Assembly: GCA_963751515.1 (NCBI GenBank)
Contig: CAVVUR010000002.1
Coordinates: 69,888 to 133,887 of the forward strand
Source: an uncultured delta proteobacterium
GTDB taxonomy: Bacteria > Desulfobacterota > WTBG01
Reading direction: 5' to 3'
Length of the DNA: 64,000 nucleotides
Made by a program: the position numbers and the translations under genes. This document shows, in pieces, positions 5,626 to 61,370 of the stretch (the stretch's first letter is position 1; each line of letters begins with the position of its first letter). Below the pieces are notes generated by a model that was not told where the DNA came from, ran no database searches, and worked only from the letters and a program-made list of their open reading frames with translations.

Positions 5626-5926
5626 CTAGCAGGCTGTTGAAAAACACCCATCTGATTCGTGGCTCAAAGGGGAGGGGCTTTTGACGCCACAACAATTTGT
5701 CTTTAGACTTACGGCACGACCCGGTGCCTTCGACTTGAACCGAAAGCAGGCAGCTTTGCAGAGACTTCGATACGGCTGCTGCCATGCGGGTCTGTCGGAC
5801 AAAGTTAGAGAGATGCTGCCGTTCTACAGGTTCCGAATACTTTTGTTGTGGCTAAAAAGCCCTTCCCCCTTGAGCCACATACTTTTGAACAGCCTGAGGA
5901 AAGCTATTATTTCAACAGCCTGCTAG
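5626..5926 (+). repeat. Nested palindromic intergenic repeat, copy 1 (core 5659-5878 inside a CTA...TAG-flanked shell, variant A)
   Basis: Core has ~36-bp terminal inverted repeats, GTGGCTCAAAGGGGAGGGGCTTTTGACGCCACAACAA / TTGTTGTGGCTAAAAAGCCCTTCCCCCTTGAGCCAC. Outer inverted repeat is CTAGCAGGCTGTTGAAAAA ... TTTCAACAGCCTGCTAG. Five further copies occur in the window. Confidence 0.9.
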
Positions 5927-7475: not shown

Positions 7476-8363
7476 ATGATAGTAGCCATCGCCGAGAGCA
7501 TTAACATCATGTCCAAGACCATAGGGCCGGCCATGCGGGAGAAAAACCCCAGGCCCATCCAGGAAATGGCCATCGCCGAGGCAGAGGCCGGTGCGCAGTT
7601 TCTCGACGTCAACATAGGGCCCGCGCGCAAGGGCGGCGCCGAGATGATGGAGTGGCTGGTCAGGACCATCCACGAGGTGGTGGATCTGCCCCTCTCGCTT
7701 GATACCACCAACCTGGAGGCCATGGAGGCGGGCTTGAAGGCCCACAAAAAAGGAGGGCGGCCGCTGGTCAATTCCGTTTCCTGTCAGCTTGACCGCATTG
7801 ATCCGGGGCTCGACCTGGTTAAAAAATACGGCGCGCTCATGGTGGGACTGCTTTGGGGAACCGACGGGATGCCGCGGGACGTGAATGAACGGGCGTCCCT
7901 GGCCGTGGATCTTATCATCAAGGCCAACGAAAAGGGGATTCCCAATGAGGATATTTTCATCGATCCCATTGCAACCCCCATCAGCGGAGAGATAAACCAG
8001 GTGAAGGCCTGTCTGGAGTTTATGGGCATGCTGCAGGATCTGGGCCCCGGCTGCAAATCGACTGTGGGATTGTCAAACGTCTCCAATGGCGCCCCTGACG
8101 CATTGCGCCCCTTTTTGAACCGTCCCTATCTCCTCATGCTCCACAAGCAGGGGCTCTACTCGGCTATTGTTGACGCGTACGATAAGGAAATGATGGCCCT
8201 CTGCAAAGGCGGGATGCCGGAACTGCGAGAGCTGGTTGCGAAGCTGATGGAAGGCCGGCCGGTTGATATGGCGGCCCTTTCAGAAAAAGAAAAGCAGTAT
8301 GCCAAATCAGTGAAAGTGCTTCAGGGGCAGGTGCTGTTCTCTAACTCCTGGCTGGACACCTAG
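7476..8363 (+). CDS. acsE: Methyl-THF:corrinoid/iron-sulfur protein methyltransferase
   Basis: Pterin-binding, DHPS-like sequence (FLDVNIGP, LSLDT, NSVS, IDPI, GLSNVS). Start chosen at the internal ATG 7476 of ORF 7401-8363. Confidence 0.85.
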   Translation: MIVAIAESINIMSKTIGPAMREKNPRPIQEMAIAEAEAGAQFLDVNIGPARKGGAEMMEWLVRTIHEVVDLPLSLDTTNLEAMEAGLKAHKKGGRPLVNSVSCQLDRIDPGLDLVKKYGALMVGLLWGTDGMPRDVNERASLAVDLIIKANEKGIPNEDIFIDPIATPISGEINQVKACLEFMGMLQDLGPGCKSTVGLSNVSNGAPDALRPFLNRPYLLMLHKQGLYSAIVDAYDKEMMALCKGGMPELRELVAKLMEGRPVDMAALSEKEKQYAKSVKVLQGQVLFSNSWLDT

Positions 8364-8696
8364 TGTAGTGCGTCATTGATTCCTTTATTTATATGTGGCT
8401 CAAGGGGGAGGGGCTTTTTAGCCACAACAAAATTATTCCGGATCCTGTAGAACGGCAGCGTCTCTCTAACTTTGTCCGACAGACCCGCGTGGCACCAGCC
8501 TGTATCGAAGCCTCTGCAAAGCTGCCTGTCTGCGGTTGAAGTCACAAGGCACCGGGTCGTGCCGTAAGCGTAAAGACACATTGTTGTGGCGTCAAAAGCC
8601 CCTCCCCTTTGAGCCACTGAACCTCTTCTACGGCATGGTATTCGCAACGCACAGGAGCCTTTCATAAGTAAAGATGTGTTGGACGCACTACACTAG
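8360..8696 (-). repeat. Nested palindromic intergenic repeat, copy 2 (core 8395-8617, inverted; shell variant B), followed by a half-copy of the variant-A shell at 8693-8735
   Basis: Same core as copy 1 in opposite orientation. Outer inverted repeat is CTAGTGTAGTGCGTC ... GACGCACTACACTAG. The left TAG (8361-8363) is the acsE stop codon. Confidence 0.9.
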
Positions 8697-8772
8697 CCGG
8701 CTGGTGAAAACACCCATCTGCTGTGTTACGTACAAGATGTGCTTCTCTGCCGGGCGTTAAAGGAGTAGTTGT

Positions 8773-15799: not shown

Positions 15800-18700
15800 T
15801 TAAGGCACTGAACAGCCGGCGCAGTCGGCCCGCAAAAACTGCTCTTTCATGATTACCAGGTCGGCGAGGTTGACACTGCCGTCATTGTTGCCATCAGCCT
15901 CACAGGGGTTGCTGCCGCAGCCGGTGCTGAGGAACTCCCTCTTCATTATTACCAGGTCTGAAAGATCAACTTTGGCATCACAGTTACAATCTGCGTAACA
16001 CTCGCAGGCATCGCCGATCCCATTACCGGAAACATCACCCTGCCCCCGGTCACAGTAATGACCGTCTCCGCATGCAGGATCGCCGGTGCAGTCCCCCCCG
16101 GTCGCAATAACCACGCCGCTTGTTTCCTTCACGCACCTGCCCAACTCCGGGCCATTGGGAAGGTCAGGGCAGTTATCATCACAACCTTCGGTCAAGCCGC
16201 CTGAACAGAAATTATCGCCGGCGGTTCCGCTCGAGTCGCCGTCGGCCAGAACGCCGTCGCCATCCTCGTCCCCCGGATTTACACACCGGTCCAGTGGTTC
16301 ACTGCATACTAACGGGGGACAGGGATTCCCGGAGTGCTGGGAGCAACTGCCGGAGCTGCAGGTGTCGGCACCGTTGCAGAATGTACCGTCGTTACACACC
16401 GTGCCGTCGGCCCGGGGCCGGGAAATGCATTGATCAAGGGTGTCGTCACATACCCCCGCGGTGCACTGGTCGTCCAGGAACGAGCAGTCCCTGGCTGAAC
16501 CGGCCCCGCAGGTACCATCCGAACAGAAGTCTCCCACTGTGCAGTAGAGGCCATCTTCACACGGACTTCCGTTGGAGATGACGGTGTGTATGCAGGAGCC
16601 TGATCCGCTGCAGGTGTCGCTGGTACAGGAGTTGCCGTCATTGGAGCAGGGGGTTCCCGCCGGGTTATAGCAGCTGTCGGTGCCTTCCTGGCATTGCTTG
16701 CATTCCGTTTCCGGGCAGGGCGGTACGCCGGGGCGGCAATCGCCGACGGGATCGCACTGCTCGGGGCCATTGCAAAACAGGCCGTCACTGCAGAGGGCAT
16801 CGTCGGGTTCAAACCGGCAGCCGGTCAGCGGATCGCAGAAGTTATCGGTACAGCCGATACCATCATCACAGAGGGAATTGACGGGACTGTGCACGCAGGA
16901 CCTGCTGCCCTCAAGGCAGGAGTCTGCCGTGCAGTCAATGCCGTCGCTGCAATCAGGCGGACTGCCGCCATGGCAGATGCCGTCGGTTCCGCAGCTCTCC
17001 ACGCCGCTGCAGAAATATCCGTCATCGCACTCCCCGTCATCGCCGCACGCGGTGAAACAGAATTCCCCTGCCTGCACCGTGACAGCCAGCTGGAAAATTA
17101 AATCCTGCACCCCCACATTGATGGGAGTGAGCGTCCTGCACGCTCCCACCGGCGCCGAGGGTGAAACGCGATGCGCAAGGGTAAAGATGGGTCCGGCTCC
17201 GGGCTCAATGAGGTTCCCGATGAAAGAAACCAGGGACACCCGGCAGCAACCGTTGACTTCATTGGATGAACAGGTGAACCCCGCTGTGCGTTCCGTAGTC
17301 GTACAGCCGCTGCAGGTAAGGTAGTTATCTGTATCACAGATTTCCATCTGCATGCCTTTCACCTCACTGAAGGAGGTGGCAAGACTCACCTCAGCTTCGC
17401 CCCCGGCTGAGCCGGGAGGTCCCGTGCCGTCTTCCACGGTGATGGTGATCGGCTGACACTGGTCTGTCGCCTCATTGCAATCCCGGCCCCTGCAGGGGTA
17501 GTCATTGGGAAACTGAAACAGCAGATCGCAGACGCCGGTATCACAGGTTTCTGTCCCGTTGCAGAAGAGGCCGTCATTACAGTCTTCATCCTGTGTGCAG
17601 TTGCAGAGATCCTGCGACTCATTACAGACCGATCCCGATGGACAGGGATCGCCGGCGTGCAGCGAGCACATTCCGCCGCTGCAGGTGTCCTTGCCGTTGC
17701 AAAACGCCCCGTCATTACAGGAGGCGCTGTTGGGGAGCTGCACGCAGCCGCCCGACCCGTCACAGACATCGTCGGTACAGAGGTTTCCGTCATCACCGCA
17801 GCGGGTTCCGGCCGGGTCGAAACAGCTGTCGGATGCTTCCTGACAGGCGTTGCACTCCGTGCCGGGGCAGGGGGCTGTGCCGGGCTGACAGAATCCGCCC
17901 CCACAGGTCTCCAGTCCGTTGCAGAATAACCCATCGTCACAATCTTCGTCATCGGTGCAGGGGATGAGACAGATATCCTGTGCCTCGTCGCAGGTGGAAG
18001 CGGGAGCGCAGGGATCACCGCTGTGGGTGCACACATTGTTTGCCTCATCGCAACCCTCCGCGCCGTTGCAGAAGAATCCGTCGTTTCCGCAGGGAGGAGT
18101 GCCCGCACGGCAGATACCCTCGCACTGTTCTTCACCGTTGCAAAAAATACCGTCATCACAATCGGCATCGGAGGTGCATACGTAAAAGCAGAACGAACCC
18201 TTCCCGGTTATCACCGGGAGCTCGACGGGATTTCCGTTCACGTCCTCGCCCAATACCGATACCTCTTCGGGGTTGAGGTCCCTGCACCCGGAGGAGGGGG
18301 CGCCCCGCGATACCCGGTAGGCAAGCGCAAATACCGGGCCTTCGCCCGGCGGGATAGGATCGGCAGCGCCTGAATTTATGGCAATGACCCTGACGCAGCC
18401 GTTGGTCAGGTTTTCATAGAAGCAGGAAAAGCCGGCGGGGGTACGCCCGGCAGGCTGGCAGCCGGTGCAATCGAGATAGTTATCCACATCACAGACATCA
18501 ACCGAGATGGCCCGTACCGGATTGCCGGGATTGGTGAGGCTTATCTCTACGGGATTGTTGGATGAACCCGGCAGACCCGATCCCTCTCCCAGGGTGAGGA
18601 AAAGAGGAGCTTCTCCCTCCAGGCAGAGATCCGTTTCCTCATCGCAGACGAACAGGGGCGGGGTCTGACAGGGGTAGGAGCCGGCACGGCAGTTGCCGCT

Positions 18701-19867
18701 GCCGGTATCACACCGCTCCACGCCGTTGCAGAAGAGTCCGTCACTGCAGTTTGCATCGGTTGTGCAGCTCACGAAGCAGAATAATCCCGAGCCGGTTACT
18801 ACCGGGAGCTCGATGGGATTTCCGCTCACGTCCTCGCCCAATACCGATACCTCTTCGGGGTTGAGGTCCCTGCACCCGGAGGAGGGGGCGCCCCGCGATA
18901 CCCGGTAGGCAAGCGCAAATACCGGGCCTTCGCCCGGCGGGATAGGATCGGCAGCGCCTGAATTTATGGCAATGACCCTGACGCAGCCGTTGGTCAGGTT
19001 TTCATAGAAGCAGGAAAAGCCGGCGGGGGTACGCCCGGCAGGCTGGCAGCCGGTGCAATCGAGATAGTTATCCACATCACAGACATCAACCGAGATGGCC
19101 CGTACCGGATTGCCGGGATTGGTGAGGCTTATCTCTACGGGATTGTTGGATGAACCCGGCAGACCCGATCCCTCTCCCAGGGTGAGGAAAAGAGGAGCTT
19201 CTCCCTCCAGGCAGAGATCCGTTTCCTCATCGCAGACGAACAGGGGCGGGGTCTGACAGGGGTAGGAGCCGGCACGGCAGTTGCCGCTGCCGGTATCACA
19301 CCGCTCCACGCCGTTGCAGAAGAGTCCGTCACTGCAGTTTGCATCGGTTGTGCAGCTCACGAAGCAGAATAATCCCGAGCCGGTTACTACCGGGAGCTCG
19401 ATGGGATTTCCGCTCACGTCCTCGCCCAATACCAGCGCTTCTTCCAGATCCAGATCCTTGCACCCTGAGGAAGGGGCCCTCCCGGACACCGTATATGTAA
19501 GCTTAAGCACCGGGCCTTCGCCCGGCGGGATAGGATCGGCAGCGCCTGAATTTATGGCAATGATCCTGACGCAACCGTTGGTCAGGTTTTCGTAGAAGCA
19601 GGAAAAGCCGGAAGGGGTGCGCCCGGCAGGCTGGCAGCCGGTGCAGTCGAGATAGTTATCCACATCACAGACATCAACCGAGATGGCCCGTACCGGATTG
19701 CCGGGATTGGCGAGGCTTATCTCTACGGGATTGTTGGATGAGCCGGGCAGGCCCGATCCCTCTCCCGCAGTGATGGTCACCTGAGCATAGAGCCGGCATG
19801 AACATCCCCAGGCCAGGATTAAAAACATGGCTCGAATAAGAAGGTTTATCCGGGGTCCTTTTATCAT
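15800..19867 (-). CDS. Giant secreted Cys-rich scaffoldin-like protein: 4 cohesin-like modules, DGxFCNG-type Cys-rich repeats, TSP3-like Ca-binding stretch, C-terminal dockerin-like module
   Basis: Start moved to ATG 19867 (AAGGAAG RBS; signal peptide MIKGPRINLLIRAMFLILAWG). Four modules of type GEGSGLPGSSNNPVEISL..VRAISVDVCD..; many C.DG.FCNG..C units; DDNCPDLPN; C-terminal duplicated DLSDLVIMKREFL / DGSVNLADLVIMKEQFL. Confidence 0.65.
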   Translation of the reverse strand: MIKGPRINLLIRAMFLILAWGCSCRLYAQVTITAGEGSGLPGSSNNPVEISLANPGNPVRAISVDVCDVDNYLDCTGCQPAGRTPSGFSCFYENLTNGCVRIIAINSGAADPIPPGEGPVLKLTYTVSGRAPSSGCKDLDLEEALVLGEDVSGNPIELPVVTGSGLFCFVSCTTDANCSDGLFCNGVERCDTGSGNCRAGSYPCQTPPLFVCDEETDLCLEGEAPLFLTLGEGSGLPGSSNNPVEISLTNPGNPVRAISVDVCDVDNYLDCTGCQPAGRTPAGFSCFYENLTNGCVRVIAINSGAADPIPPGEGPVFALAYRVSRGAPSSGCRDLNPEEVSVLGEDVSGNPIELPVVTGSGLFCFVSCTTDANCSDGLFCNGVERCDTGSGNCRAGSYPCQTPPLFVCDEETDLCLEGEAPLFLTLGEGSGLPGSSNNPVEISLTNPGNPVRAISVDVCDVDNYLDCTGCQPAGRTPAGFSCFYENLTNGCVRVIAINSGAADPIPPGEGPVFALAYRVSRGAPSSGCRDLNPEEVSVLGEDVNGNPVELPVITGKGSFCFYVCTSDADCDDGIFCNGEEQCEGICRAGTPPCGNDGFFCNGAEGCDEANNVCTHSGDPCAPASTCDEAQDICLIPCTDDEDCDDGLFCNGLETCGGGFCQPGTAPCPGTECNACQEASDSCFDPAGTRCGDDGNLCTDDVCDGSGGCVQLPNSASCNDGAFCNGKDTCSGGMCSLHAGDPCPSGSVCNESQDLCNCTQDEDCNDGLFCNGTETCDTGVCDLLFQFPNDYPCRGRDCNEATDQCQPITITVEDGTGPPGSAGGEAEVSLATSFSEVKGMQMEICDTDNYLTCSGCTTTERTAGFTCSSNEVNGCCRVSLVSFIGNLIEPGAGPIFTLAHRVSPSAPVGACRTLTPINVGVQDLIFQLAVTVQAGEFCFTACGDDGECDDGYFCSGVESCGTDGICHGGSPPDCSDGIDCTADSCLEGSRSCVHSPVNSLCDDGIGCTDNFCDPLTGCRFEPDDALCSDGLFCNGPEQCDPVGDCRPGVPPCPETECKQCQEGTDSCYNPAGTPCSNDGNSCTSDTCSGSGSCIHTVISNGSPCEDGLYCTVGDFCSDGTCGAGSARDCSFLDDQCTAGVCDDTLDQCISRPRADGTVCNDGTFCNGADTCSSGSCSQHSGNPCPPLVCSEPLDRCVNPGDEDGDGVLADGDSSGTAGDNFCSGGLTEGCDDNCPDLPNGPELGRCVKETSGVVIATGGDCTGDPACGDGHYCDRGQGDVSGNGIGDACECYADCNCDAKVDLSDLVIMKREFLSTGCGSNPCEADGNNDGSVNLADLVIMKEQFLRADCAGCSVP
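18190..19790. repeat. 588-bp tandem repeat (~2.7 copies), in frame within the scaffoldin-like gene
   Basis: 18241-18790 and 18829-19378 look identical base for base; a third, diverged unit follows. Each 196-aa unit is a cohesin-like module plus a Cys-rich linker. Confidence 0.9.
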
Positions 19868-19880
19868 TGCGGCTTCCTTA

Positions 19881-20702
19881 TCATCTGCAGGCCTCACAAC
19901 AATTGGTCTTGCCCAGTGCCCTGTCCACAATCACCAGGAGGTCAAAGGTATCGAACGTACCATCGGTTTGGCAATTTGAGGAGTCAGAGGGGCTGCCGCA
20001 GAAAGGGGGCATTCCATTGGGTACATCTCCATGGAGTTGCTGACAGGAGTTCGCCGTCCTCCGCCCCGAAACCAGGTCAGCACCCTCCATCACGTCCAGA
20101 AGGTTAACCGTCCCATCACCGCAGGCGGTGCCTGCCGGGGAAATCCCCTGGGGGTAAATATCACCATACGAAGAAAGGCAGAACTCACCATCGGCGGTGG
20201 TTACATCAAGCGAGGCACCCGACTGATCCGATACATTCTCATGGTTAATGCTAAGTGTGGTGCATGCATCGTTCCAATTCTCCTCACCCACGGTGTAGCT
20301 GAGGGTGCACACCGGGCCGGTTCCCTCCTGGATGAGAAAACCCTGGAAAGAAATGAGCACCACCCGGGCACATCCATTATCCAGTTCACTGGCAAAGCAG
20401 GAAAAATGGGAGGCGCGGCTGGTAGTCTTGCAGCCTCCTTTATCTGCTATGGTGAGATGGTCTTCGGGATCGCACACCTCCATCTGAACGGCCTTTATTT
20501 TATTTCCCGTATTTGAGAGGTTTATATCAACCTTATTGTCTGATGAACCGGGAAGGCCTGATCCCGTGCCCGGGGCAAGCGTTACCTGAGAACAGGTGAT
20601 GGAGGGCACGCCTGCCAGGCATAGCAAGACCGTGCTAACGAATAAAAAAAGGCATCCGAATTTAGCTTGTATTCGGAGCGGCATTTCCATGCATCTATAC
20701 AC
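19881..20702 (-). CDS. Secreted cohesin-like + atypical dockerin-like protein
   Basis: Signal peptide, then the module GTGSGLPGSSDNKVDINL..IKAVQMEVCD. C-terminus GDGTVNLLDVMEGADLV ... GDVPNGMPPFCG ... DGTFDTFDLLVIVDRAL. Stop lies 13 nt before the start of the downstream giant gene. Exact start (20702 or 20684) is uncertain. Confidence 0.6.
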   Translation of the reverse strand: MYRCMEMPLRIQAKFGCLFLFVSTVLLCLAGVPSITCSQVTLAPGTGSGLPGSSDNKVDINLSNTGNKIKAVQMEVCDPEDHLTIADKGGCKTTSRASHFSCFASELDNGCARVVLISFQGFLIQEGTGPVCTLSYTVGEENWNDACTTLSINHENVSDQSGASLDVTTADGEFCLSSYGDIYPQGISPAGTACGDGTVNLLDVMEGADLVSGRRTANSCQQLHGDVPNGMPPFCGSPSDSSNCQTDGTFDTFDLLVIVDRALGKTNCCEACR

Positions 20703-21037: not shown

Positions 21038-21595
21038 ATGCTGGAAAAACTGATTGAAATGATTGCAGAGCGGTCTTTCCAGATGAGCGACGCACCAAGC
21101 TTCAAGCTTGCGTCAGGAAAGCTCAGTAAATATTATGTCAACTGCCGGTTGGTCACTATCGACCCCGAGGGAATGCATCTCATCGGCAACCTCGTCTATG
21201 ACAGAATAAAAGACATGGGCATTGATCTCATAGGCGGCCCCTCTCTGGGAGCCGTCCCCATTGTGGATGCCGTTTCCATGACGGCCTATCAAAAGGGAAA
21301 ATATATAAAGCCGTTTTACGTGCGCGAGCAGGCAAAAGACCACGGGATCGGCAAAAAGATAGAGGGCAATATCAAAAAGGGTGAGCGGGCGGTGATTGTG
21401 GATGATGTTATCACCACGGGTGCATCAACCATTCGCGCCATCGAGAGCGCGCGCAACGAAGGCCTCCTGGTAGTAAAGGTGATTACCCTGGTGGACCGGG
21501 AGGAAGGCGGAAGGGAAGAAATCAGGCGGCAGGTGGAAGATGTCGAAAGCCTGGTGAGCTTGAGCACGCTCATACAACTCGCCGGCAAGCGCTAG
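21038..21595 (+). CDS. pyrE: Orotate phosphoribosyltransferase
   Basis: PRPP-binding motif VIVDDVITTGAS with OPRTase-like N-terminal region. Start set at ATG 21038, preceded by AAAGGAGA. Confidence 0.85.
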   Translation: MLEKLIEMIAERSFQMSDAPSFKLASGKLSKYYVNCRLVTIDPEGMHLIGNLVYDRIKDMGIDLIGGPSLGAVPIVDAVSMTAYQKGKYIKPFYVREQAKDHGIGKKIEGNIKKGERAVIVDDVITTGASTIRAIESARNEGLLVVKVITLVDREEGGREEIRRQVEDVESLVSLSTLIQLAGKR

Positions 21596-21724
21596 CAGGC
21601 TGGTGAAAAACACCCATCTGCTGTGTTACGCTCATCCTTCGTCATTGCAGCGTACTCGCATGTACGCCTCATTCCTCAGGATTTCGCGTGCCTTGCATCT
21701 GGATGTTTTTGACCAGCCTGCTGG
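21592..21724. repeat. Stand-alone 133-bp variant-A-type shell element (no core)
   Basis: CTAGCAGGCTGGTGAAAAACACCCATCTG ... ATCTGGATGTTTTTGACCAGCCTGCTGG. The left TAG (21593-21595) is the pyrE stop codon. Confidence 0.75.
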
Positions 21725-22616: not shown

Positions 22617-23055
22617 GTCATTCTGAGCGCAGCGAAGAATCTCATCACTCATTAAGATCTGGTACCGCAATAACCCTCAATTTTTACACCAGTGAAAAAC
22701 CAGATCATTTGTTTCACCAGGGATGACAAGCTCTACCAGCCATCACTCATATCTTTCCAATCAGGGTTATGTAACTCGATAAGTTCAATCTTCTTTTTTC
22801 TCAACCATCCTTTGATTTGTTTCTCACGTGCAATTGCAGCATGCACGTCAAATGTTTCCTCAAAGAACACTAACTTTTTCAAATTGTATTTACGTGTAAA
22901 ACCCGGCAGAATGTTCTCTTTATGTTCATAAACACGCCTAGTTAAATTATTCGTTATTCCAGTATAGAGCACGCCCCCTTTCCTGTTTGTCATTATATAA
23001 ACGAAATAATTTTTTTCCATAATAATATGAGATCCTTCGTTTCACTCAGGATGAC
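22617..23055. mobile_element. GIY-YIG gene enclosed by 29-bp imperfect inverted repeats of the GTCATTCTGAGCG motif
   Basis: Left arm GTCATTCTGAGCGCAGCGAAGAATCTCAT (22617-22645) and right arm ATGAGATCCTTCGTTTCACTCAGGATGAC (23027-23055) flank ORF 22733-23020. Confidence 0.5.
22733..23020 (-). CDS. Small GIY-YIG nuclease-family protein
   Basis: 95 aa: YFVYIMTN..GVLYTGITNNL..R..EHK. Confidence 0.8.
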   Translation of the reverse strand: MEKNYFVYIMTNRKGGVLYTGITNNLTRRVYEHKENILPGFTRKYNLKKLVFFEETFDVHAAIAREKQIKGWLRKKKIELIELHNPDWKDMSDGW

Positions 23056-28839: not shown

Positions 28840-31619
28840 ATGAGAAAGCTATCAATGATTTTGTCGGTTTTGTGTATTTCATTCCTGATTGCCTTTCCGG
28901 CCTTTCCGCTATCCTATCAGATTGATGTGGGACAGGATGGAATTGATACCGGCGGAGAGGTAGTCCTTTCTGGCCAAACAAACGTGAATATTGACCTTAT
29001 AGTCGATGACTATGACTGTCCGCCTGATGACAAACTCTTCGGCGTGCAGTCATATCTTTACATTGATGAGTCGATTGTCAAGGTAAACAGCTGCACACCG
29101 CGCACAGACCGCGGGTGTGATCTTTCGCTGAGCGGATGCACGCCTGCAGGAACCCAATGTGTACAGCGTGATCTGTAGTAACTTTCGTTTTATAACTGTT
29201 TCCCGGCGGCAGCCTGACTTTTGCCACTTTTAATGTTACGGTATTGGACAGGAACGACCGTAATGAGATTGGAGAATGACATTAGTGATCTTGATCCGGG
29301 TTATGGATCCTATGGTGATGGATATGTAGCCGACTGTACCCTGACAGGTCAAGTATTTCCTGCCGATGCAAGTCTCACGATTAATCCTTCACAAGCGGTC
29401 TGCGGCAACGGAAATCCCAGCCAGGAGAGCAGTGTGATGACGGCAATACCGTCGGTGGAGACTGCTGCAGCGCCACCTGTCAGTTCGAAGGGGCAGGCAA
29501 CCCATGCGGAGACGGCAATACCTGCAATGGCGCAGAAACCTGTAACGGTACCGGCATCTGCCAGGCCGGCGCGCCGATTAACTGCAATGACTCCAACGTC
29601 TGCACCACGGACACCTGTAATCCAGCATCCGGCTGTGTGAATACCCCGATCAGCTGCGATGACGCCAGTCTCTGCACCACGGATACTTGTAATCCAGCAT
29701 CCGGCTGCGTGAATACCCCGATCAGCTGCGATGACGCCAGTCTCTGCACCACGGACACCTGTAATCCAGCATCCGGCTGTGTGAATACCCCGATCAGCTG
29801 CGATGACGCCAGTCTCTGCACAACGGATACTTGTAATCCAGCATCCGGCTGTGTGAATACCGTCATCAGCTGCGATGACTCCAACCCCAACACCACGGAC
29901 ACTTGCGACCCGGCTACCGGCGAGTGCATCCACACTCCCCCGGGTTGCACAAATCCCTGTAGCGATAATAATGCATGTACAGAGAACGACGCGTGTGTCG
30001 GTGACGTATGCACAGGCGCTCCGGTCAATTGTGACGACGCCAGTCTCTGCACCACGGACACCTGTAATCCAGCATCCGGCTGTGTGAATACCCCGATCAG
30101 CTGCGATGACGCCAGTCTCTGCACCACGGACACCTGTAATCCAGCATCCGGCTGCGTGAATACCCCGATCAGCTGCGATGACGCCAGTCTCTGCACCACG
30201 GACACCTGTAATCCAGCATCCGGCTGTGTGAATACCCCGATCAGCTGCGATGACGCCAGTCTCTGCACCACGGATACTTGTAATCCAGCATCCGGCTGCG
30301 TGAATACCGTCATCAGCTGCGATGACTCCAACCCCAACACCACGGACACCTGCGACCCGGCTACCGGCGAGTGCATCCACACTCCTCCCCCGGGCTGTAC
30401 AGATCCCTGTAGTGATAATAATGCATGTACAGAGAACGACGTGTGTGTCGGTGACGTATGCACAGGCGCTCCGGTCAATTGTGACGACGCCAGTCTCTGC
30501 ACCACGGACACCTGTAATCCAGCATCCGGCTGTGTGAATACCCCGATCAGCTGCGATGACGCCAGTCTCTGCACCACGGACACCTGTAATCCAGCATCCG
30601 GCTGCGTGAATACCCCGATCAGCTGCGACGACGCCAATCCCTGCTCTACGGACACCTGCAACCCGGCTACCGGTTGCATGAATACACCAATCAATTGCGA
30701 CGACGGCGACCCCAATACCACGGATACCTGCGATCCGGCTACCGGTGAGTGCATCCACACCCCCCCGGGTTGCATAAATCCCTGTAGCGATAATAATGCG
30801 TGTACAGAGAACGACGTTTGTGTGGGTGACGTATGCACAGGAACTCCAGTCAATTGCAATGACTCCAACCTTTGCACCACGGATACATGCAACCCCGTAA
30901 CCGGCTGCGTGTATACCCCGATCAGTTGTGATGACGGAGTAAGCTGCACCGACGATACCTGCAACCCGGCTACCGGCTGTTCGAACACCCCCAATAACGC
31001 CAATTGCCAGGATGACGGTCTCTATTGCAACGGTGATGAGGTTTGCGACCCGATTAATGATTGTTTTTCAACCGGCAATCCCTGTCCGGATGGTTCCGTT
31101 TGCGATGAGATAAACGATGAATGCGATCCGGAAGCAGGCTTAACCGTTAAGGTTGATATCAAACCCGGGTCCTGTCCGAATCCGCTCAACCTAAAGAGTC
31201 GAGGCGTTGTATCGATTGCTATACTCGGGTCAATGGATTTTAAGGTGAATGATATCGATCCCATGACCGTTATGATAGGCAGAGCAAGCGTTCCAGGGAA
31301 GGTAGCTCCCATTCGCTACAGCTATGAAGATGTTGCCACGCCTTATGAAGGTGAACTCTGCGGATGTAATCGTTGCTCTGGCGATGGGTACAAGGACCTG
31401 GTTCTTAAATTCGAAATCGAGAAACTGGTTGATACCTTAATGCTTGGAGAGGCGGCCGGGCAAACAGTCCCGCTCATCATAACCGGCAATCTTAAGGAAA
31501 GAAAGGGTGGCACAGCATTCTCGGGCCAGGACTGCATGAAAATCCTTAAGAATACTTTAAAATTAAAAGATTTGATTGACCAGTTCAAGAAAGAGAAGGA
31601 TAACCGCGGCAAGAAGTAG
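28840..31619 (+). pseudogene. Secreted Cys-rich repeat protein (N-terminal beta-sandwich-like 'YxCxPxDxLFG' domain, CGNG..GEQCDDGN unit, ~15 CDDxxxCTxDxCNPxxGC repeats), at least 3 frameshifts near the 5' end
   Basis: ORFs 28840-29178, 29221-29640 and 29637-31619 align consecutively to the paralogues at 31911 and 43579. Signal peptide MRKLSMILSVLCISFLIAFPAF. Frameshifts at ~29150, ~29200-29250 and ~29415. Confidence 0.6.
29581..30960. repeat. Nested tandem repeats: 72-bp (24-aa) units organised in a 447-bp higher-order repeat
   Basis: The unit TGCGATGACGCCAGTCTCTGCACCACGGACACCTGTAATCCAGCATCCGGCTGTGTGAATACCCCGATCAGC recurs near-identically. Blocks start at 29581, 30028 and 30475 (period 447). 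Confidence 0.9.
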
Positions 31620-31910: not shown

Positions 31911-34900
31911 ATGAAAAAGCTATCATTGATTTTATCGGTTCTGTTAATCTCAACCCTCTTTGCCATTCCAGCCTTTCCGTTATCTTATGAAATTGATGTC
32001 GGCCAGAATGGGACCTTTGAAACAACTGGTGGCAATAATGATGGGACCATCGATCTTAATGTTAATGATTCTGTAACCATGGACATTTATGTGGACGGAT
32101 ATTCCTGTGCGCCAAATGATCAGCTGTTTGGAGTACAAGCATACATGTTTGTAGATGAATCACAGGTTTCGGTTAGCGGTTTCCCTTTTAGTGTCGCAAA
32201 TGGCGGGCCTTTTGATAATGGTTTGAGTGGATTTATACAGCAAGAAGCAAATGTGTATCTTTTGTCCGCCTCCAACTTTACTTTCGTAACTGTCACCGGT
32301 GGGAAACAAAAATTTGCCACGATGACTTTATCATGTATTTCAAGCGGTACGTTTACTCTGGCTATAGCAAATGACCTTACCTCTTATGGGTACTCATCGT
32401 ATTCCGACGGATTCGTTGCGGATTGTGGCTTAGTCTATTTGTTTCCCACTACTGCGTTATTTACAATTAATCAGAACCAGCCGACCGTCTTTCCGGAAGT
32501 CGCAACCACCTGTCCGGTAGTGGCAACGACCTGCCCGGCAGTAGCGACGACCTGCCCAGAAGCGGCAACCAGCTGTCCGGCAGATCCGACGAACTGTCCG
32601 ATTGCAGCCACCAGCTGTCCGGCAGATGCGACCTTCTGTCCTGAAATACCAACGGTATGTCCTGAAGGAGTGACTACCTGCCCAGAAATACCAACGACCT
32701 GTCCCACAGGTGCGACTTTCTGCCCAGAAAATCCAACCTTCTGCCCAGAAAATCCAACCTTCTGCCCTGAAATAGCAACCGTCTGTCCTGAATCAGTAAC
32801 CGCTTGTCCAATAGTGGCGACGGTTTGTCCTGAAGGCGTGACCCTCTGTCCTGCAAATCCAACCTTCTGCCCTGAAGGTGTAACTACCTGCCCCGAAATA
32901 CCAACTGCCTGTCCTGCAGTTGCAACCGTCTGTCCTGAATCAGTAACCAATTGTCCGGTGCAGGCAACCACTTGTCCGATAGAGGCAACTGTTTGTCCCG
33001 CAGGTGCGACCTTCTGTCCCGAAATACCAACTGTATGCCCCGAGGCGGCAACGATCTGCCCAGAAATATCAACGACCTGTCCCACAGGTGCGACTTTCTG
33101 CCCTGAAAATCCGACCTTCTGTCCTGAAATACCAACAACATGCCCTGAGACAGCAACTGTCTGTCCCGTAGAGGCAACGGTGTGTCCGGAGGAAGCAACG
33201 GTTTGTCCGGTAGAGGCAACAGTGTGCCCGGAGGAAGCAACTGTCTGTCCTATAGAGACAACAGTTTGTCCAGTAGGCGCGACCTTCTGCCCTGTAACTG
33301 AAACTGCCTGTCCTGAAACGGAAACGGTGTGCCCCGCCGCTGATTGTCCGTTAGCTTATAAGTTCGATTTTGATGGTGACAGGTACTGGGATACAGAATG
33401 GGAATTAACTCCTCCTGACCCACCTGCTGCCGGCGAGACAGTTCAAGTTGACATCTGGCTGAATGGATATGTGTGTCCGCCGAGTGACGATCTTTTTGGC
33501 ATACAGTTATACTTTTTGTATGATCCAAATGCCATGCAGGTGATCCAGGCCTATCCTAATAATAGCGATCACGGAGGACCTTTCGATCCGAGCCTAAGTG
33601 GATTTCTACCGCAGGCGCCCGGAATATATCAATTGATTGCCGCAAGTTTCGATTTTGTCTCAGTGATTGGTAACAGGATTTTAGTGGGAACGATTGAACT
33701 GCAGTGTACAGAGGCCGGCAGTAACATTGCGATTGTGGCTGCAGACGACCTGGGATTTGATCCATATAGAGATGGATTTGTTGCAGACTGCGAATCTGTT
33801 TCGCAATTTCCCATCGAAGCTATTGCAACAATATACCAACTGTGCAACTCAGATGCAGACTGCGATGACAGTAACCAGTGCACCACGGAATATTGCGACA
33901 CAGAAACAGACAGATGTGTTTATACTGTATTGGAAAATGACACACCCTGTGATGACGGTGTGTCCTGCAATGACCCTGATATTTGTGTTGACGGACAATG
34001 CGTGTTTCAGGGTGACCCCTGCTGCGAGATTGCCATCGACCCCAAAACTGCCGAAGCGTATTACGGCGAGACCATCCAATTTACGGTCTCTGAGAAAGGA
34101 GACTGCAACCCGACGCCTTGTTACACCTGGGAAGTGCTGGCCTCGGGCGGCACGGGGAACACCACAGAGAGATACAGCTGGGCGGCTGCGGCTGAGGCAG
34201 GCACAGGCAACACGGCGGGCGGTGGTGTGATAGACGAGAATGGCCTCTATACTGCCGGAGATTCTGTAGGTACCGACATCGTTAGGGTAACCGACAACTG
34301 CAGCACTGGCGCACCCTACGATGAGGCGGAAGTGACTGTTACCGGACCGCCTCCAACAACTACAACAACAAGCGTAAGACCGACAACCACCACTACGAGT
34401 ATAGAAACAGAATGTGATGAGGATATAGACTGTACTGATGAATTGTACTGCAACGGCGCCGAGACATGTGTAGGTGGAATTTGCCAGGACGGGACGCCGG
34501 TTGCCTGCACTGATGACGGACAATTCTGCAATGGCACGGAGAGCTGCAGCGAGCAGGCTGATGCGTGTGTCAGTTCCGGCAATCCCTGCGGGACCACACA
34601 ATCCTGCAATGAGACAACCGATGCATGCGAGCAGCTTGCCCGGATTGACGCGCTTTTGCCTCCTTCCTGGTATCAGTCAAGGTGGATACCCTTGATCAGG
34701 CCGCTGCGCATTGTCGGATCAGGCACCAGTTTTCAGGCTCGTGAATCAAAAGTTACCTTTGAGCCGAACATTGCCGTATTTCCGTTCTTTTCGAGAGTCG
34801 TGGATGAAGAAAATATCCTCATCTGGACCTATATCATGCCGCAGTGGCTGACCAGGCCGCTCGAGGGACCTGTACAGGTGACAGTCACTACCGGTTCTGA

Positions 34901-34973
34901 AGTAGTATCTGCCGACTGGGATATCAATTTGCTCCCCTTCCCACTTGATCAAGAAGGGGCGGATCTGGAGTAA
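31911..34973 (+). CDS. Secreted modular Cys-rich protein: two 'YxCxPxDxLFG' beta-sandwich-like domains, 40 PxxxTxC heptads, Cys-rich DG..C.. repeats, Ig-like region, Thr-rich linker
   Basis: 1020 aa; AAGGAGG RBS; signal peptide MKKLSLILSVLLISTLFAIPAF; paralogous to the N-termini of 28840 and 43579. Confidence 0.6.
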   Translation: MKKLSLILSVLLISTLFAIPAFPLSYEIDVGQNGTFETTGGNNDGTIDLNVNDSVTMDIYVDGYSCAPNDQLFGVQAYMFVDESQVSVSGFPFSVANGGPFDNGLSGFIQQEANVYLLSASNFTFVTVTGGKQKFATMTLSCISSGTFTLAIANDLTSYGYSSYSDGFVADCGLVYLFPTTALFTINQNQPTVFPEVATTCPVVATTCPAVATTCPEAATSCPADPTNCPIAATSCPADATFCPEIPTVCPEGVTTCPEIPTTCPTGATFCPENPTFCPENPTFCPEIATVCPESVTACPIVATVCPEGVTLCPANPTFCPEGVTTCPEIPTACPAVATVCPESVTNCPVQATTCPIEATVCPAGATFCPEIPTVCPEAATICPEISTTCPTGATFCPENPTFCPEIPTTCPETATVCPVEATVCPEEATVCPVEATVCPEEATVCPIETTVCPVGATFCPVTETACPETETVCPAADCPLAYKFDFDGDRYWDTEWELTPPDPPAAGETVQVDIWLNGYVCPPSDDLFGIQLYFLYDPNAMQVIQAYPNNSDHGGPFDPSLSGFLPQAPGIYQLIAASFDFVSVIGNRILVGTIELQCTEAGSNIAIVAADDLGFDPYRDGFVADCESVSQFPIEAIATIYQLCNSDADCDDSNQCTTEYCDTETDRCVYTVLENDTPCDDGVSCNDPDICVDGQCVFQGDPCCEIAIDPKTAEAYYGETIQFTVSEKGDCNPTPCYTWEVLASGGTGNTTERYSWAAAAEAGTGNTAGGGVIDENGLYTAGDSVGTDIVRVTDNCSTGAPYDEAEVTVTGPPPTTTTTSVRPTTTTTSIETECDEDIDCTDELYCNGAETCVGGICQDGTPVACTDDGQFCNGTESCSEQADACVSSGNPCGTTQSCNETTDACEQLARIDALLPPSWYQSRWIPLIRPLRIVGSGTSFQARESKVTFEPNIAVFPFFSRVVDEENILIWTYIMPQWLTRPLEGPVQVTVTTGSEVVSADWDINLLPFPLDQEGADLE
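32493..33332. repeat. 40 uninterrupted 21-bp (heptad) coding repeats, consensus P-[EV]-x-[AP]-T-x-C
   Basis: Counted in the translation from PEVATTC, PVVATTC ... to PETETVC; the register never slips. Confidence 0.9.
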
Positions 34974-35628: not shown

Positions 35629-35706
<78 letters not shown>

Positions 35707-47530: not shown

Positions 47531-48951
<1,421 letters not shown>

Positions 48952-49018
48952 GAGTTTCTCCTTTTAATCGCTGGTGATCACGGTCGATTCACGCTTGATG
49001 CCCATGCCCCTCATCCTC

Positions 49019-49338
49019 GTGTAGTGCGTCCAAGACATCTGGCTCCTGTGCGTTGCGAATACCATGCTCTAGAAGAGGTGCAGTGGCTCAAAGGGGAGGG
49101 GCTTTTGACGCCACAACAATTTGTCTGTACGCTTACGGCACGACCCGGTGCCTTACGACTCAAACCGCAGACAGGCAGCTTTGCAGAGGCTTCGATACAG
49201 GCTGTTGCCATGCGGGTCTGTCGGACATAGTTTGAGATTCGCTGCCGTTCTACAGGCTCCGAATAATTTTGTTGTGGCTAAAAAGCCCCTCCCCTTGAGC
49301 CACATATAAATAAAGAAATCAATGACGCACGACACTAG
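49019..49338 (+). repeat. Nested palindromic intergenic repeat, copy 3 (core 49083-49303; shell variant B)
   Basis: Shares core and shell with copy 2. The right-hand CTAG (49335-49338) contains the nfnA stop codon (minus strand). Confidence 0.9.
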
Positions 49339-50445: not shown

Positions 50446-51126
50446 ATGGACACGCGCAATGCGGGAAGCAACCCTGCCGGATCACCGTACGACCATGCTT
50501 TTACATTGGCCTGCGAGGTTTTAAGAAGGGCCGACATAGAGGAGCGGGCAGGAAAAAGCGGGGCTTTTTTTAAGAAAGAAGATGACGGGCGCTGCCTGAT
50601 CAAGCTCACTTTTTTAAATCAATATTGCCTCATACATTTTCCCGACATAACGGTAACCTATCAAAGCGAAGGAGGGGAGGTTCCCCTCTGGAGCAGGCTC
50701 GTCATTCTGCATTACCTTATACAGGCGCAGGGCGGCCCGCTTGCCGGCGAGTGGATAAGCTTTCGACAATTGTCCGGCGGGGACATGTATTACCCGGCTT
50801 TCGACAGGAGATCACAAAAGCCGCTGCTCGACTTTTTTGCGCAGCGGGATGATCTTTTTGAAGAGGCCGGTCGCGCCCTGGGAGGAACAAAGGCTCCCGC
50901 GGGTGACCGGGGTGTCATCATTTCCGCTCTCCCGAAAGTTCCCATGGCTTTTCTTTTCTGGAACGGGGATGAGGAATTTCCGCCTGAGGCGCGGATCCTG
51001 TTCGATGCCAGCCTGCCCGCCTATCTTCCCACGGAAGATGCCGTGGTGCTGGCGCAGCAGGCGGCCTTCCGGCTCATCGACCGGGGGCGGGAACTGGCCC
51101 GTAAGCACGGTACCATTCATTACTAG
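50446..51126 (+). CDS. Hypothetical protein, DUF3786-like (recalled from memory, unverified)
   Basis: ORF 50311-51126 with the first plausible ATG at 50446; no catalytic motif recognised. Confidence 0.35.
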   Translation: MDTRNAGSNPAGSPYDHAFTLACEVLRRADIEERAGKSGAFFKKEDDGRCLIKLTFLNQYCLIHFPDITVTYQSEGGEVPLWSRLVILHYLIQAQGGPLAGEWISFRQLSGGDMYYPAFDRRSQKPLLDFFAQRDDLFEEAGRALGGTKAPAGDRGVIISALPKVPMAFLFWNGDEEFPPEARILFDASLPAYLPTEDAVVLAQQAAFRLIDRGRELARKHGTIHY

Positions 51127-51417
51127 CAGGCTGTTGAAAAACACCCATCTGATTCGTGGCTCAAAGGGGAGGGGCTTTTGACGCCACAACAATGTGTCTT
51201 TACGCTTACGGCACGACCCGGTGCCTTCGACGCGAACCGAAAGCAGGCAGCTTTGCAGAGGCTTCGATAGAGGCTGTTGCCATGCGGGTCTGTCTGACAA
51301 AGTTAGAAAGTCGCTGCCGTTCTACCGGTTCCGAATAGTTTTGTTGTGGCTCAAAAGCCCCTTCCCTTTGAGCCTTTGAACGGCCTGAGGAAAACTACTT
51401 TTTCAACAACCTGCTAG
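51123..51417 (+). repeat. Nested palindromic intergenic repeat, copy 4 (core 51156-51374; shell variant A)
   Basis: Near-identical to copy 1. The left TAG (51124-51126) is the stop codon of the preceding ORF. Confidence 0.9.
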
Positions 51418-57740: not shown

Positions 57741-57849
57741 ACAATGTTATATGGTGAGTGAGGGCCGTTTGCGCCACAACACCCATAATTTGATAATTGG
57801 CCTGCGGGGTCAGAATAATTTTGATTACATCCCATGGTAGCGGGGACAC

Positions 57850-58070
57850 GTGGCTCACGGGGAGGGGGTTTTTAAAGCCACAACAATTTGTCCCTTGGCT
57901 TACGTCACGACCCCGTGCCTTACGAATTAAGCCGCGGACAGGCAGTTTCCACGGGCTTCAACGAAGGCTGTTGCCATGGGGTCTGTCGGTACGAATTTAC
58001 AAGGCATCTGCCGTTCTACAGGTTCCGAATAATTTTGTTGTGGCTTTAAAACCCCCTCCCCGTGAGCCAC
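57850..58070 (+). repeat. Palindromic intergenic repeat core, copy 5 (diverged subfamily C)
   Basis: GTGGCTCACGGGGAGGGGGTTTTTAAAGCCACAACAA ... TTGTTGTGGCTTTAAAACCCCCTCCCCGTGAGCCAC; no CTAG shell. Confidence 0.85.
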
Positions 58071-58190
58071 TTATGAAAACCTGGTATAGGGGAAGGTGGC
58101 TTACGGCATGGCCCGATACTTACAAATGCGTTCCTTTACCTTTAAGGTTAACGCCAAGCGGATTGCAGCAGAGTGGAGGTATTCTAAGTA

Positions 58191-60921: not shown

Positions 60922-61021
60922 CAAGGGGGCATTAGGCATCTGTCATAATAAGTAAATGATGTTTAAAGAGCGGCCTGCGGGAAGGGGGTTTTTCAAGCCA
61001 CATACACGTCATTGATACGGG

Positions 61022-61237
61022 GTCTGTGGGAGGGGGATTTTTTAAGCCACAACAAAATTATTCGGAGCCTGTAGAACGGCAGCTGCCTTGTAAATTCACT
61101 CCGACAGACCCCATGGCAAGAGCCTTTGTTGAAGTCCGTGGAAGCTGCCTGTTCGCGGCTTAATACGTAAGGCACGGGGTCGTGACGTAAGCTGACAGAC
61201 AAATTGTTGTGGCTTTAAAAACCCCCTCCCCGCAGAC
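61022..61237 (-). repeat. Palindromic intergenic repeat core, copy 6 (subfamily C, inverted), plus an extra half-arm at 60975-61003
   Basis: GTCTGTGGGAGGGGGATTTTTTAAGCCACAACAAAA ... TTGTTGTGGCTTTAAAAACCCCCTCCCCGCAGAC; the centre matches copy 5 in reverse complement. Confidence 0.85.
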
Positions 61238-61370
61238 TCCTGATTGTATGAGCTATAAAAAAATTTAAAACCTTTAGAACAGCAAATGCCATGTCAATGT
61301 AACCTGAAAATCCCACGGCACCGATATATATTTATTAAACAGGCGATACCATCGAGGTTGAAGGCGTATT

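Follow-up and report, generated by a model that had tools for sequence, protein, structure and literature searches.

MITEPsy1, a MITE derived from IS5 in Pseudomonas syringae, has the terminal inverted repeat (TIR) GGAAGGTCTGAAAAAGCC and takes CTAG or YTAA as its target, with a duplication of 4 nt (PMC3189936). The repeats described here, found in a 64-kb stretch of DNA from an uncultured member of the Desulfobacterota (hereafter the window), resemble it in being small, non-coding and TIR-bounded, in inserting at CTAG/YTAA with a 4-bp duplication, and in their strain-variable presence. The motif AGG..T.TGAAAAA.C is present in the MITEPsy1 TIR and in the A-type end of our elements, the resemblance between A-type TIR and GGAAGGTCTGAAAAAGCC being one of loose motif only (PMC3189936). 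Unlike MITEPsy1 they are three times longer and possess a large internal foldback module which is absent from that element, and past the TIR motif there is no similarity.

The Correia elements, which are restricted to Neisseria, share with these repeats a size of 100-150 bp or more, long TIRs and polymorphism between strains, and have a functional centre. They duplicate TA, however, and their TIR sequences are unrelated to those found here. Also shared is an intergenic setting; Correia elements are often co-transcribed, with stems that are cut by RNase III (PMC10969869). The ERIC/IRU elements of Enterobacteriaceae and Vibrionaceae are likewise imperfect palindromes of transcribed intergenic regions which occur in both orientations and in size variants created by internal insertions or deletions. 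ERIC is unrelated in sequence and without a defined CTAG duplication, and its copies are mostly old and fixed, whereas those described here are polymorphic between near-identical strains.

REP, BIME and REPIN sequences, with their RAYT proteins, offer a parallel in extragenic hairpin units occurring singly or as inverted doublets, in mosaics with short motifs (PMC3116915). The arms of our elements do not have the GTAG head of REPs but start, in subfamily 1 only, with GTGGC; their spacer of 145 bp is much longer and is conserved; no RAYT gene was found in the fetched loci with an approximate IS200 TnpA query; and the TIRs and 4-bp duplications of the outer frames are typical of DDE transposition. 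Modular construction, with one internal piece occurring between various ends or modules, is also described for the Tn3-derived TIMEs (PMC4133298) and the BrickBuilt MITE of Porphyromonas (cited in PMC10969869); both differ from our elements in transposase family and in sequence.

Our reading, to which we would give a probability of roughly 0.8, is that the repeats are composite non-autonomous MITEs which insert at CTAG/YTAR, are moved in trans, and are selfish rather than regulators of energy operons. The family is genuine, new and recently active, ordinary in kind and unusually modular. Its interest lies in the targeting of CTAG and stop codons and in an architecture of shared core and swapped ends.

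A foldback core within swappable frames

Six copies of a repeat of ~220 bp had been described from the sequence alone, and all six were recovered at the same positions by repeat finding, MAFFT alignment and an nhmmer profile (E 1e-65 to 1e-75; Table 1). With the same profile no seventh core copy was detected in the window at E<1e-3. All six are intergenic, none lying within an ORF, and Pfam bore out the neighbouring genes named by the sequence-only reading. Its observations stood in these respects; what did not stand was the confinement of the repeats to energy-metabolism operons and the equation of the core with the whole element.

The core is a foldback in which inverted arms of 38-45 bp, earlier put at ~36 bp, enclose an asymmetric centre of 145 bp. 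The arms are indeed true terminal inverted repeats, a G-tract marking the left arm and a C-tract the right, and the asymmetry of the centre is also real. Two subfamilies can be told apart, the first made up of c1-c4 and the second of c5-c6. The exact central hairpin GGCACGACCCGGTGCC, previously ascribed to every copy, is present in c1-c4, whereas c5 and c6 have GTCACGACCCCGTGCC at that point. Similarly, the GTGGC...GCCAC mini-hairpin ascribed to each arm is a property of subfamily 1 copies: c6 is missing the GTGGC tip and hence the intra-arm hairpin, and the cores of more divergent relatives have no mini-hairpin at all. In c6 and in the copies L028b/c, L086 and L036b the arm tips are completely different and the intra-arm hairpin has been lost. 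The arm tracts GGGGAGGGG (5669-5678) and CCCCTCCCC (5861-5870), like their counterparts in other copies, resemble Shine-Dalgarno and anti-Shine-Dalgarno sequences, and would pair with each other in a transcript.

The mobile unit is larger than the core. In c1-c4 the core is enclosed by an outer frame with its own short TIRs and CTAG flanks, so that the true ends had been missed when the ~220-bp core was taken for the whole element; the span 5626-5926 originally delimited around c1 corresponds exactly to one complete element with both CTAGs included. Alignment of the flanks revealed one pair of outer modules common to c1 and c4 (type A) and another common to c2 and c3 (type B). Type A elements start with CTAG-CAGGCTGTTGAAAAACACCCATCTGATTC and end with TTTTTCAACAGCCTG-CTAG, their outer TIRs being CAGGCTGTTGAAA and TTTCAACAGCCTG (given below as CAGGCTGTTGAAAAAC). 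Type B elements start with CTAG-TGTAGTGCGTC and end with GACGCACTACA-CTAG, TGTAGTGCGTC and GACGCACTACA also being their outer TIRs. At 290-330 bp for the framed elements, with six copies in the window, no coding content, outer TIRs of both types and inner arms of 38-45 bp, the repeats have the size (below ~600 bp), copy number and termini of MITEs. We propose that the ~220-bp foldback core is carried between short outer modules of either type A (CAGGCTGTTGAAAAAC) or type B (TGTAGTGCGTC). Neither an A nor a B frame, nor any clear duplication, was found in the c5 region.

Table 1. Repeat copies and related elements in the window (core positions from the nhmmer profile)
Feature	Position	Strand	Location	Core	Flanks and other parts
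c1, A-type composite MITE	5626-5926	+	between acsB and acsC	5659-5878 (+)	CTAG 5626-5629; A-left with TIR CAGGCTGTTGAAAAACACCCATCTGATTC 5630-5658; A-right 5879-5922; CTAG 5923-5926
c2, composite MITE with B-type ends (TIR TGTAGTGCGTC)	8360-8696	-	acsE to narI-like gene	8395-8617 (-)	CTAG 8360-8363 (contains acsE TAG stop); CTAG 8693-8696
Solo left end of A-type MITE (CCGGCTGGTGAAAACACCCATCTGCTGTGTTACG)	8697-8730	+	abuts c2		shares c2's CTAG
Core-less small MITE (133 bp), A-type TIRs, different interior	21592-21724	+			CTAG (left; contains stop codon of upstream ORF) and CTGG
c3, B-type composite MITE	49016-49338	+	between nfnA and nfnB	49083-49303 (+)	CTCG 49016-49019; CTAG 49335-49338 (contains nfnA stop codon)
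c4, A-type composite MITE	51123-51417	+	DUF3786 gene to nuoA	51156-51374 (+)	CTAG 51123-51126 (contains DUF3786 gene stop codon); CTAG 51414-51417
c5 region, ~440 bp extra DNA	57741-58176	+	HATPase gene to nuoE	57850-58070 (+), subfamily 2	degenerate arm-like remnant 57753-57781; further repeat debris
c6 region, ~400 bp extra DNA	60931-61328	-	nuoF to nuoG	61021-61240 (-), subfamily 2	extra solo arm 60970-61001

Insertion at CTAG and differences between strains

It is the entire unit of 290-330 bp that goes into CTAG (YTAR), leaving a copy of the 4-bp target at either end. Both sides of c1, c2 and c4 are formed by CTAG, and those of c3 by CTCG and CTAG, the target-site duplications being seen at framed elements. 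In a wider sample of 58 unique A-type and 20 unique B-type elements, among the matches listed, most flanks read CTAG or CTAA, or differ from one of these by a single base. CTAG is scarce in the window, with 17 occurrences as against 244 expected from base composition, a depletion of ~14-fold, or 39 expected under a Markov model, and nine of the 17 flank these elements. Only eight sites are without an associated MITE; CTAG is found, for example, at 22938, 31683, 35683, 37732, 47397, 50333, 52271 and 53931.

The copies sit just after genes because of this depleted target, which at c2, c3 and c4 includes the upstream gene's TAG stop. The stop-codon CTAG of acsE has also been hit independently by an unrelated MITE in a relative (L151). 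On our reading much of the CTAG left in the genome is intergenic, or the C+TAG of stop codons; new copies therefore land immediately 3' of genes, and insertion spares both the ORF and the downstream ribosome-binding site, so that copies are tolerated even in essential operons such as acs, nuo and nusG-rplK. A preference for a depleted tetranucleotide overlapping TAG stops thus offers safe landing sites inside essential operons, and such targeting alone can mimic operon-specific regulatory repeats.

Orthologous sites were compared in relatives graded by a NuoF search. The syntenic contig L026 of MAG MFD03899.bin.1.233, whose NuoF is 97% identical, is empty at all four of the sites corresponding to c3, c4, c5 and c6, with gaps of 63, 15, 34 and 65 bp. 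At c4 its empty site reads ATTACTAGCACGAGG, with one CTAG, as against ATTA-CTAG-(287 bp)-CTAG-AGCGAGG in the window; at c3 the site is precisely empty, with TTAG where the window has CTCG-(315 bp)-CTAG. In a 99% identical strain (L028) the c3 and c5 sites are empty and c6 is filled, the c4 CTAG carries a mini element of 94 bp composed of A-left, one arm and B-right, and two further divergent cores lie along the nuo operon. L029 has at the c5 site an element of ~135 bp with a single arm. Neither L154 (AcsE 98% identical) nor L151 (94%) has an insertion at the c1 site; at the c2 CTAG there is a variant B-type element in L154 and the unrelated MITE in L151, which has also duplicated CTAG. The reciprocal case is provided by a related MAG (L022), in which a copy separates two genes that lie side by side, uninterrupted, in the window. 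Presence or absence therefore differs at four of the six sites between strains which are 97-99% identical.

Because precise empty sites occur at c1, c3, c4 and c5 in close relatives (94-99% protein identity), the insertions are recent. The 4-bp duplications and precise empty sites rule out segmental duplication of the intergenic regions. The sequence-only reading had favoured a MITE-like DNA element while recalling REP/BIME/ERIC-like regulation; empty orthologous sites and 4-bp CTAG duplications uphold the first part, and the second gained no support (see below). The elements mark very recent strain divergence in an uncultured, acetyl-CoA-pathway lineage of Desulfobacterota. In the most distant carrier examined the host proteins are 80-93% identical to those of the window and the core ~80% identical, a divergence which would fit long residence with continuing activity in a clade of genus or family level.

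The same intergenic gaps in relatives also hold unrelated MITE-like repeats (L151 6885-7105; L026 14463-14770; L029 12842-13096 and 14564-14886), examples being one with the TIR GGTGGTGTCCC and interior GTCATTGCGAGGAGC..., and the palindrome GAACGTTGAACATTCAACTTCCAACGTCCAAC. Several MITE families crowd the intergenic space of these genomes.

The wider family and its probable transposase

Scans of a genome collection placed the core in three Desulfobacterota MAGs, and scans of metagenomes in at least 120 loci; a plasmid database and viral contigs gave no match. We fetched 838 kb of related DNA from uncultured Desulfobacterota around ~130 copies, which contained, among the matches listed, 98 full cores (84 unique in sequence) and 80 unique insertions when counted by flank. 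Many of the metagenome matches (L031-L150) fall no more than ~100 bp from the end of a contig; short-read assemblies of this lineage are evidently broken by the repeats, which explain its frequent contig breaks.

The association with energy metabolism is true of the window only. Elsewhere the neighbours are functionally unrelated, and include nusG|rplK, beta-ketoacyl synthases, type II secretion E/F, pilus genes, ParA-like ATPases, DisA, FtsH/CorA, CobS and PurM. Among the matches listed, 35 of the 53 copies with both neighbours called sit between co-directional genes, and relative to transcription 18 of these 35 are sense and 17 antisense. Coding potential can be dismissed, a conserved reading frame being excluded by single-base indels between copies which break any frame; a stop-free frame spans none of the 80 unique copies (among the matches listed) other than L025, where the ORF is antisense to rplK/nusG.

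The IS5 group duplicates a 4-bp YTAR target, with CTAG preferred, and both traits were found here. Because of this duplication and target, together with the loose TIR resemblance to MITEPsy1, the type A elements are most likely moved in trans by an IS5-group DDE transposase, presumably encoded elsewhere in the genome. The assignment is less clear for type B frames, since the B-type TIR begins TGTAGTG, as does the end of the IS3-family element ISPsy24 (PMC3189936). We would regard the elements as selfish, with any effects on host mRNA, such as RNase III cutting of the long double-stranded stem, being by-products.

Neither an autonomous element nor a transposase with matching ends was found in the 838 kb around ~130 copies, nor were A or B TIR pairs at IS-size spacing with a transposase between them. 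In the window phmmer gave no transposase match with two approximate query sequences, a weak test, and with approximate queries there was no true match to IS5 or IS200 transposases in the fetched loci. Three candidates were rejected: L001, at first sight a longer autonomous element, is a truncated copy abutting a ketoacyl-synthase gene; the TIR pair 2.1 kb apart in L056 encloses ilvD and no transposase; and the ORF with a weak match to IS5 transposase in L047 specifies a methyltransferase.

Mosaic cores and the alternative readings

The constant part of the family is the core and not the ends: it occurs in A frames, in B frames, in A/B chimeras, in the middle of a third palindromic repeat, and without any frame (c5, c6, L022, L047 and two copies in L028). 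The orientation of the centre within a frame is divided ~85:15 among the matches listed, and the flipped centres (~15%) presumably arose by recombination between the arms. Solo arms look like deletion derivatives formed between the short direct repeats GTGGC common to both arms. Three cores (L064 1882-2236, L140 910-1263 and L148 73-430) have an insertion of ~130 bp near model position 150, which represents further nesting. Compared between lineages ~65% identical, the arms are wholly different over their outer 12-15 bp yet complementary, while the inner arm GCCACAACAAT and the centre are nearly invariant. Drifting but complementary arm tips with a highly conserved centre are the opposite of the usual MITE pattern, and the simple model leaves unexplained the spread of the core among at least three frames, in both orientations or frameless. 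These oddities may keep in play a second mode of movement and a small chance of selected structure. With its one core and several frames the family is well suited to the study of end exchange among MITEs.

It is possible, though doubtful, that the inner core is an independent mobile element of REPIN- or IS200/IS605-like type, dependent upon a HUH tyrosine transposase. It would move as single-stranded DNA without duplication, beside a short target such as TCA, and would prefer the centres of palindromic MITEs and then travel with them; this is compatible with our best explanation for the outer frames. The frameless core in L022 lies between 22 and 34 bp of ordinary spacer, its orthologous site in the window being empty, and further frameless cores are those of L047, c5, c6 and L028 (two); no duplication is detectable around them. 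A divergent core in L028 sits in the middle of the third palindromic repeat, which is uninterrupted at the L029 locus. One flank of the core ends in TCA/TTC in five or more unrelated settings (B-left TTCA, A-left ATTC, c6 ATCA, L022 GTCA and L047 ATCA), and the solo arms and arm-frame mosaics resemble REP singlets and BIME-like mosaics. The TCA flank could, however, be no more than an inheritance from the frames. All of the B frames found had arms, in a sample biased to arm-bearing loci; a GTAG head like that of REPs is missing from the arms; divergent lineages do not conserve the intra-arm hairpin; and no Y1/HUH transposase was seen in the fetched loci by phmmer with an approximate IS200 TnpA query, again a weak test.

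Unlikely, in our estimation, is a centre of 145 nt which is a selected structured RNA or single-stranded DNA, has captured several unrelated TIR frames (A, B and others) and also moves alone beside TCA. It might then be a cis-acting module recruiting transposition or homing machinery, or an mRNA-processing element, and the core would be a parasite of other MITEs with a mechanism of its own.

Covariation, suggested earlier as a check on the repeats, was found in the terminal stem and in no other helix of the centre (RNAalifold on 32 and 84 copies; stacked-helix scan). In the stem eight pairs have changed on both sides, the compensatory changes being concentrated in its two outer helices, and none of 500 shuffles reached the observed covariation score; such covariation is equally expected of transposon TIRs. 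At position N of the invariant blocks GACCCN and N'GGGTC the pair is G:C in 59 copies and C:G in 14, with a mismatch in six; this covariation may represent a single evolutionary event. The Rfam scan proposed at the same time produced no relevant match to the elements: at the gathering score the sole match in the whole window was a tRNA gene (35632-35706, minus strand), and Rfam 15 at E<=10 gave, in the c3 region, one chance-level match outside the element. For c1 and c2 transcripts the predicted folds have energies of -134 and -143 kcal/mol (z about -7.9). No terminator-like site was found within either, and a single weak promoter-like match (9/12) occurs in c1 at 5681-5709, which disposes of terminator and promoter readings. 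The core-site consensus of integron attC sites does not fit.

That the elements are domesticated cis-acting RNAs of ERIC/Correia-like type, with stems which direct RNase III/RNase E or block exonucleases, strikes us as quite unlikely. Co-transcription inside operons would, under that reading, set the relative expression of subunits, an effect consistent with the location of 35 of 53 copies between co-directional genes (among the matches listed), with the very stable long stems predicted for c1 and c2 transcripts, and with the lack of terminator-like sites in these two; such effects on transcripts are on record for Correia and ERIC elements (PMC10969869). Against it stand the even orientation (18:17, among the matches listed), the functionally unrelated neighbours, and presence or absence which varies at four of six sites between 97-99% identical strains. 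Any MITE would form such a stem, so that the stem is no evidence of selection. For the same reasons of orientation, neighbours and strain polymorphism, and since the centre displays no covariation of stacked pairs, the mRNA-tuning role in the manner of REP/BIME/ERIC suggested earlier has no support. An incidental effect on mRNA through the long double-stranded stems is plausible, and anyone inferring acs or nuo regulation from intergenic structure will need to take these elements into account.

Very improbable is a multi-copy structured ncRNA gene, perhaps a ribozyme or transposon guide RNA: the centre is conserved as much as or more than the arm tips in lineages ~65% identical overall, and the closing stem (eight pairs, 0/500 shuffles) and GACCCN/N'GGGTC covary, but stem covariation is equally expected for TIRs, the single covarying position may be one event, there is no other covarying helix in the centre (RNAalifold, helix scan), no Rfam match (gathering score, window; E<=10, c3) and no orientation bias, and only the weak 9/12 promoter-like match.

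Apart from the composite MITEs, two further features of the window deserve mention. The nfnA/nfnB pair flanking c3 is on the minus strand, and nfnB (gltD-like, 47670-48951) has an apparent frameshift, a 330-aa ORF (47959-48951) continuing in another frame (47670-48080). Relatives encode at least 472 aa; in the window nfnB is either a pseudogene or the result of a sequencing or homopolymer error. Large ORFs with internal tandem repeats are located at 15800-19930 (minus), 29480-31619 and 31911-34973 (plus), with periods of 588 bp (18186-19661), 72 bp in super-repeats of ~230 bp (29490-30940) and 21 bp (32439-33326); they probably specify repetitive surface or secreted proteins.
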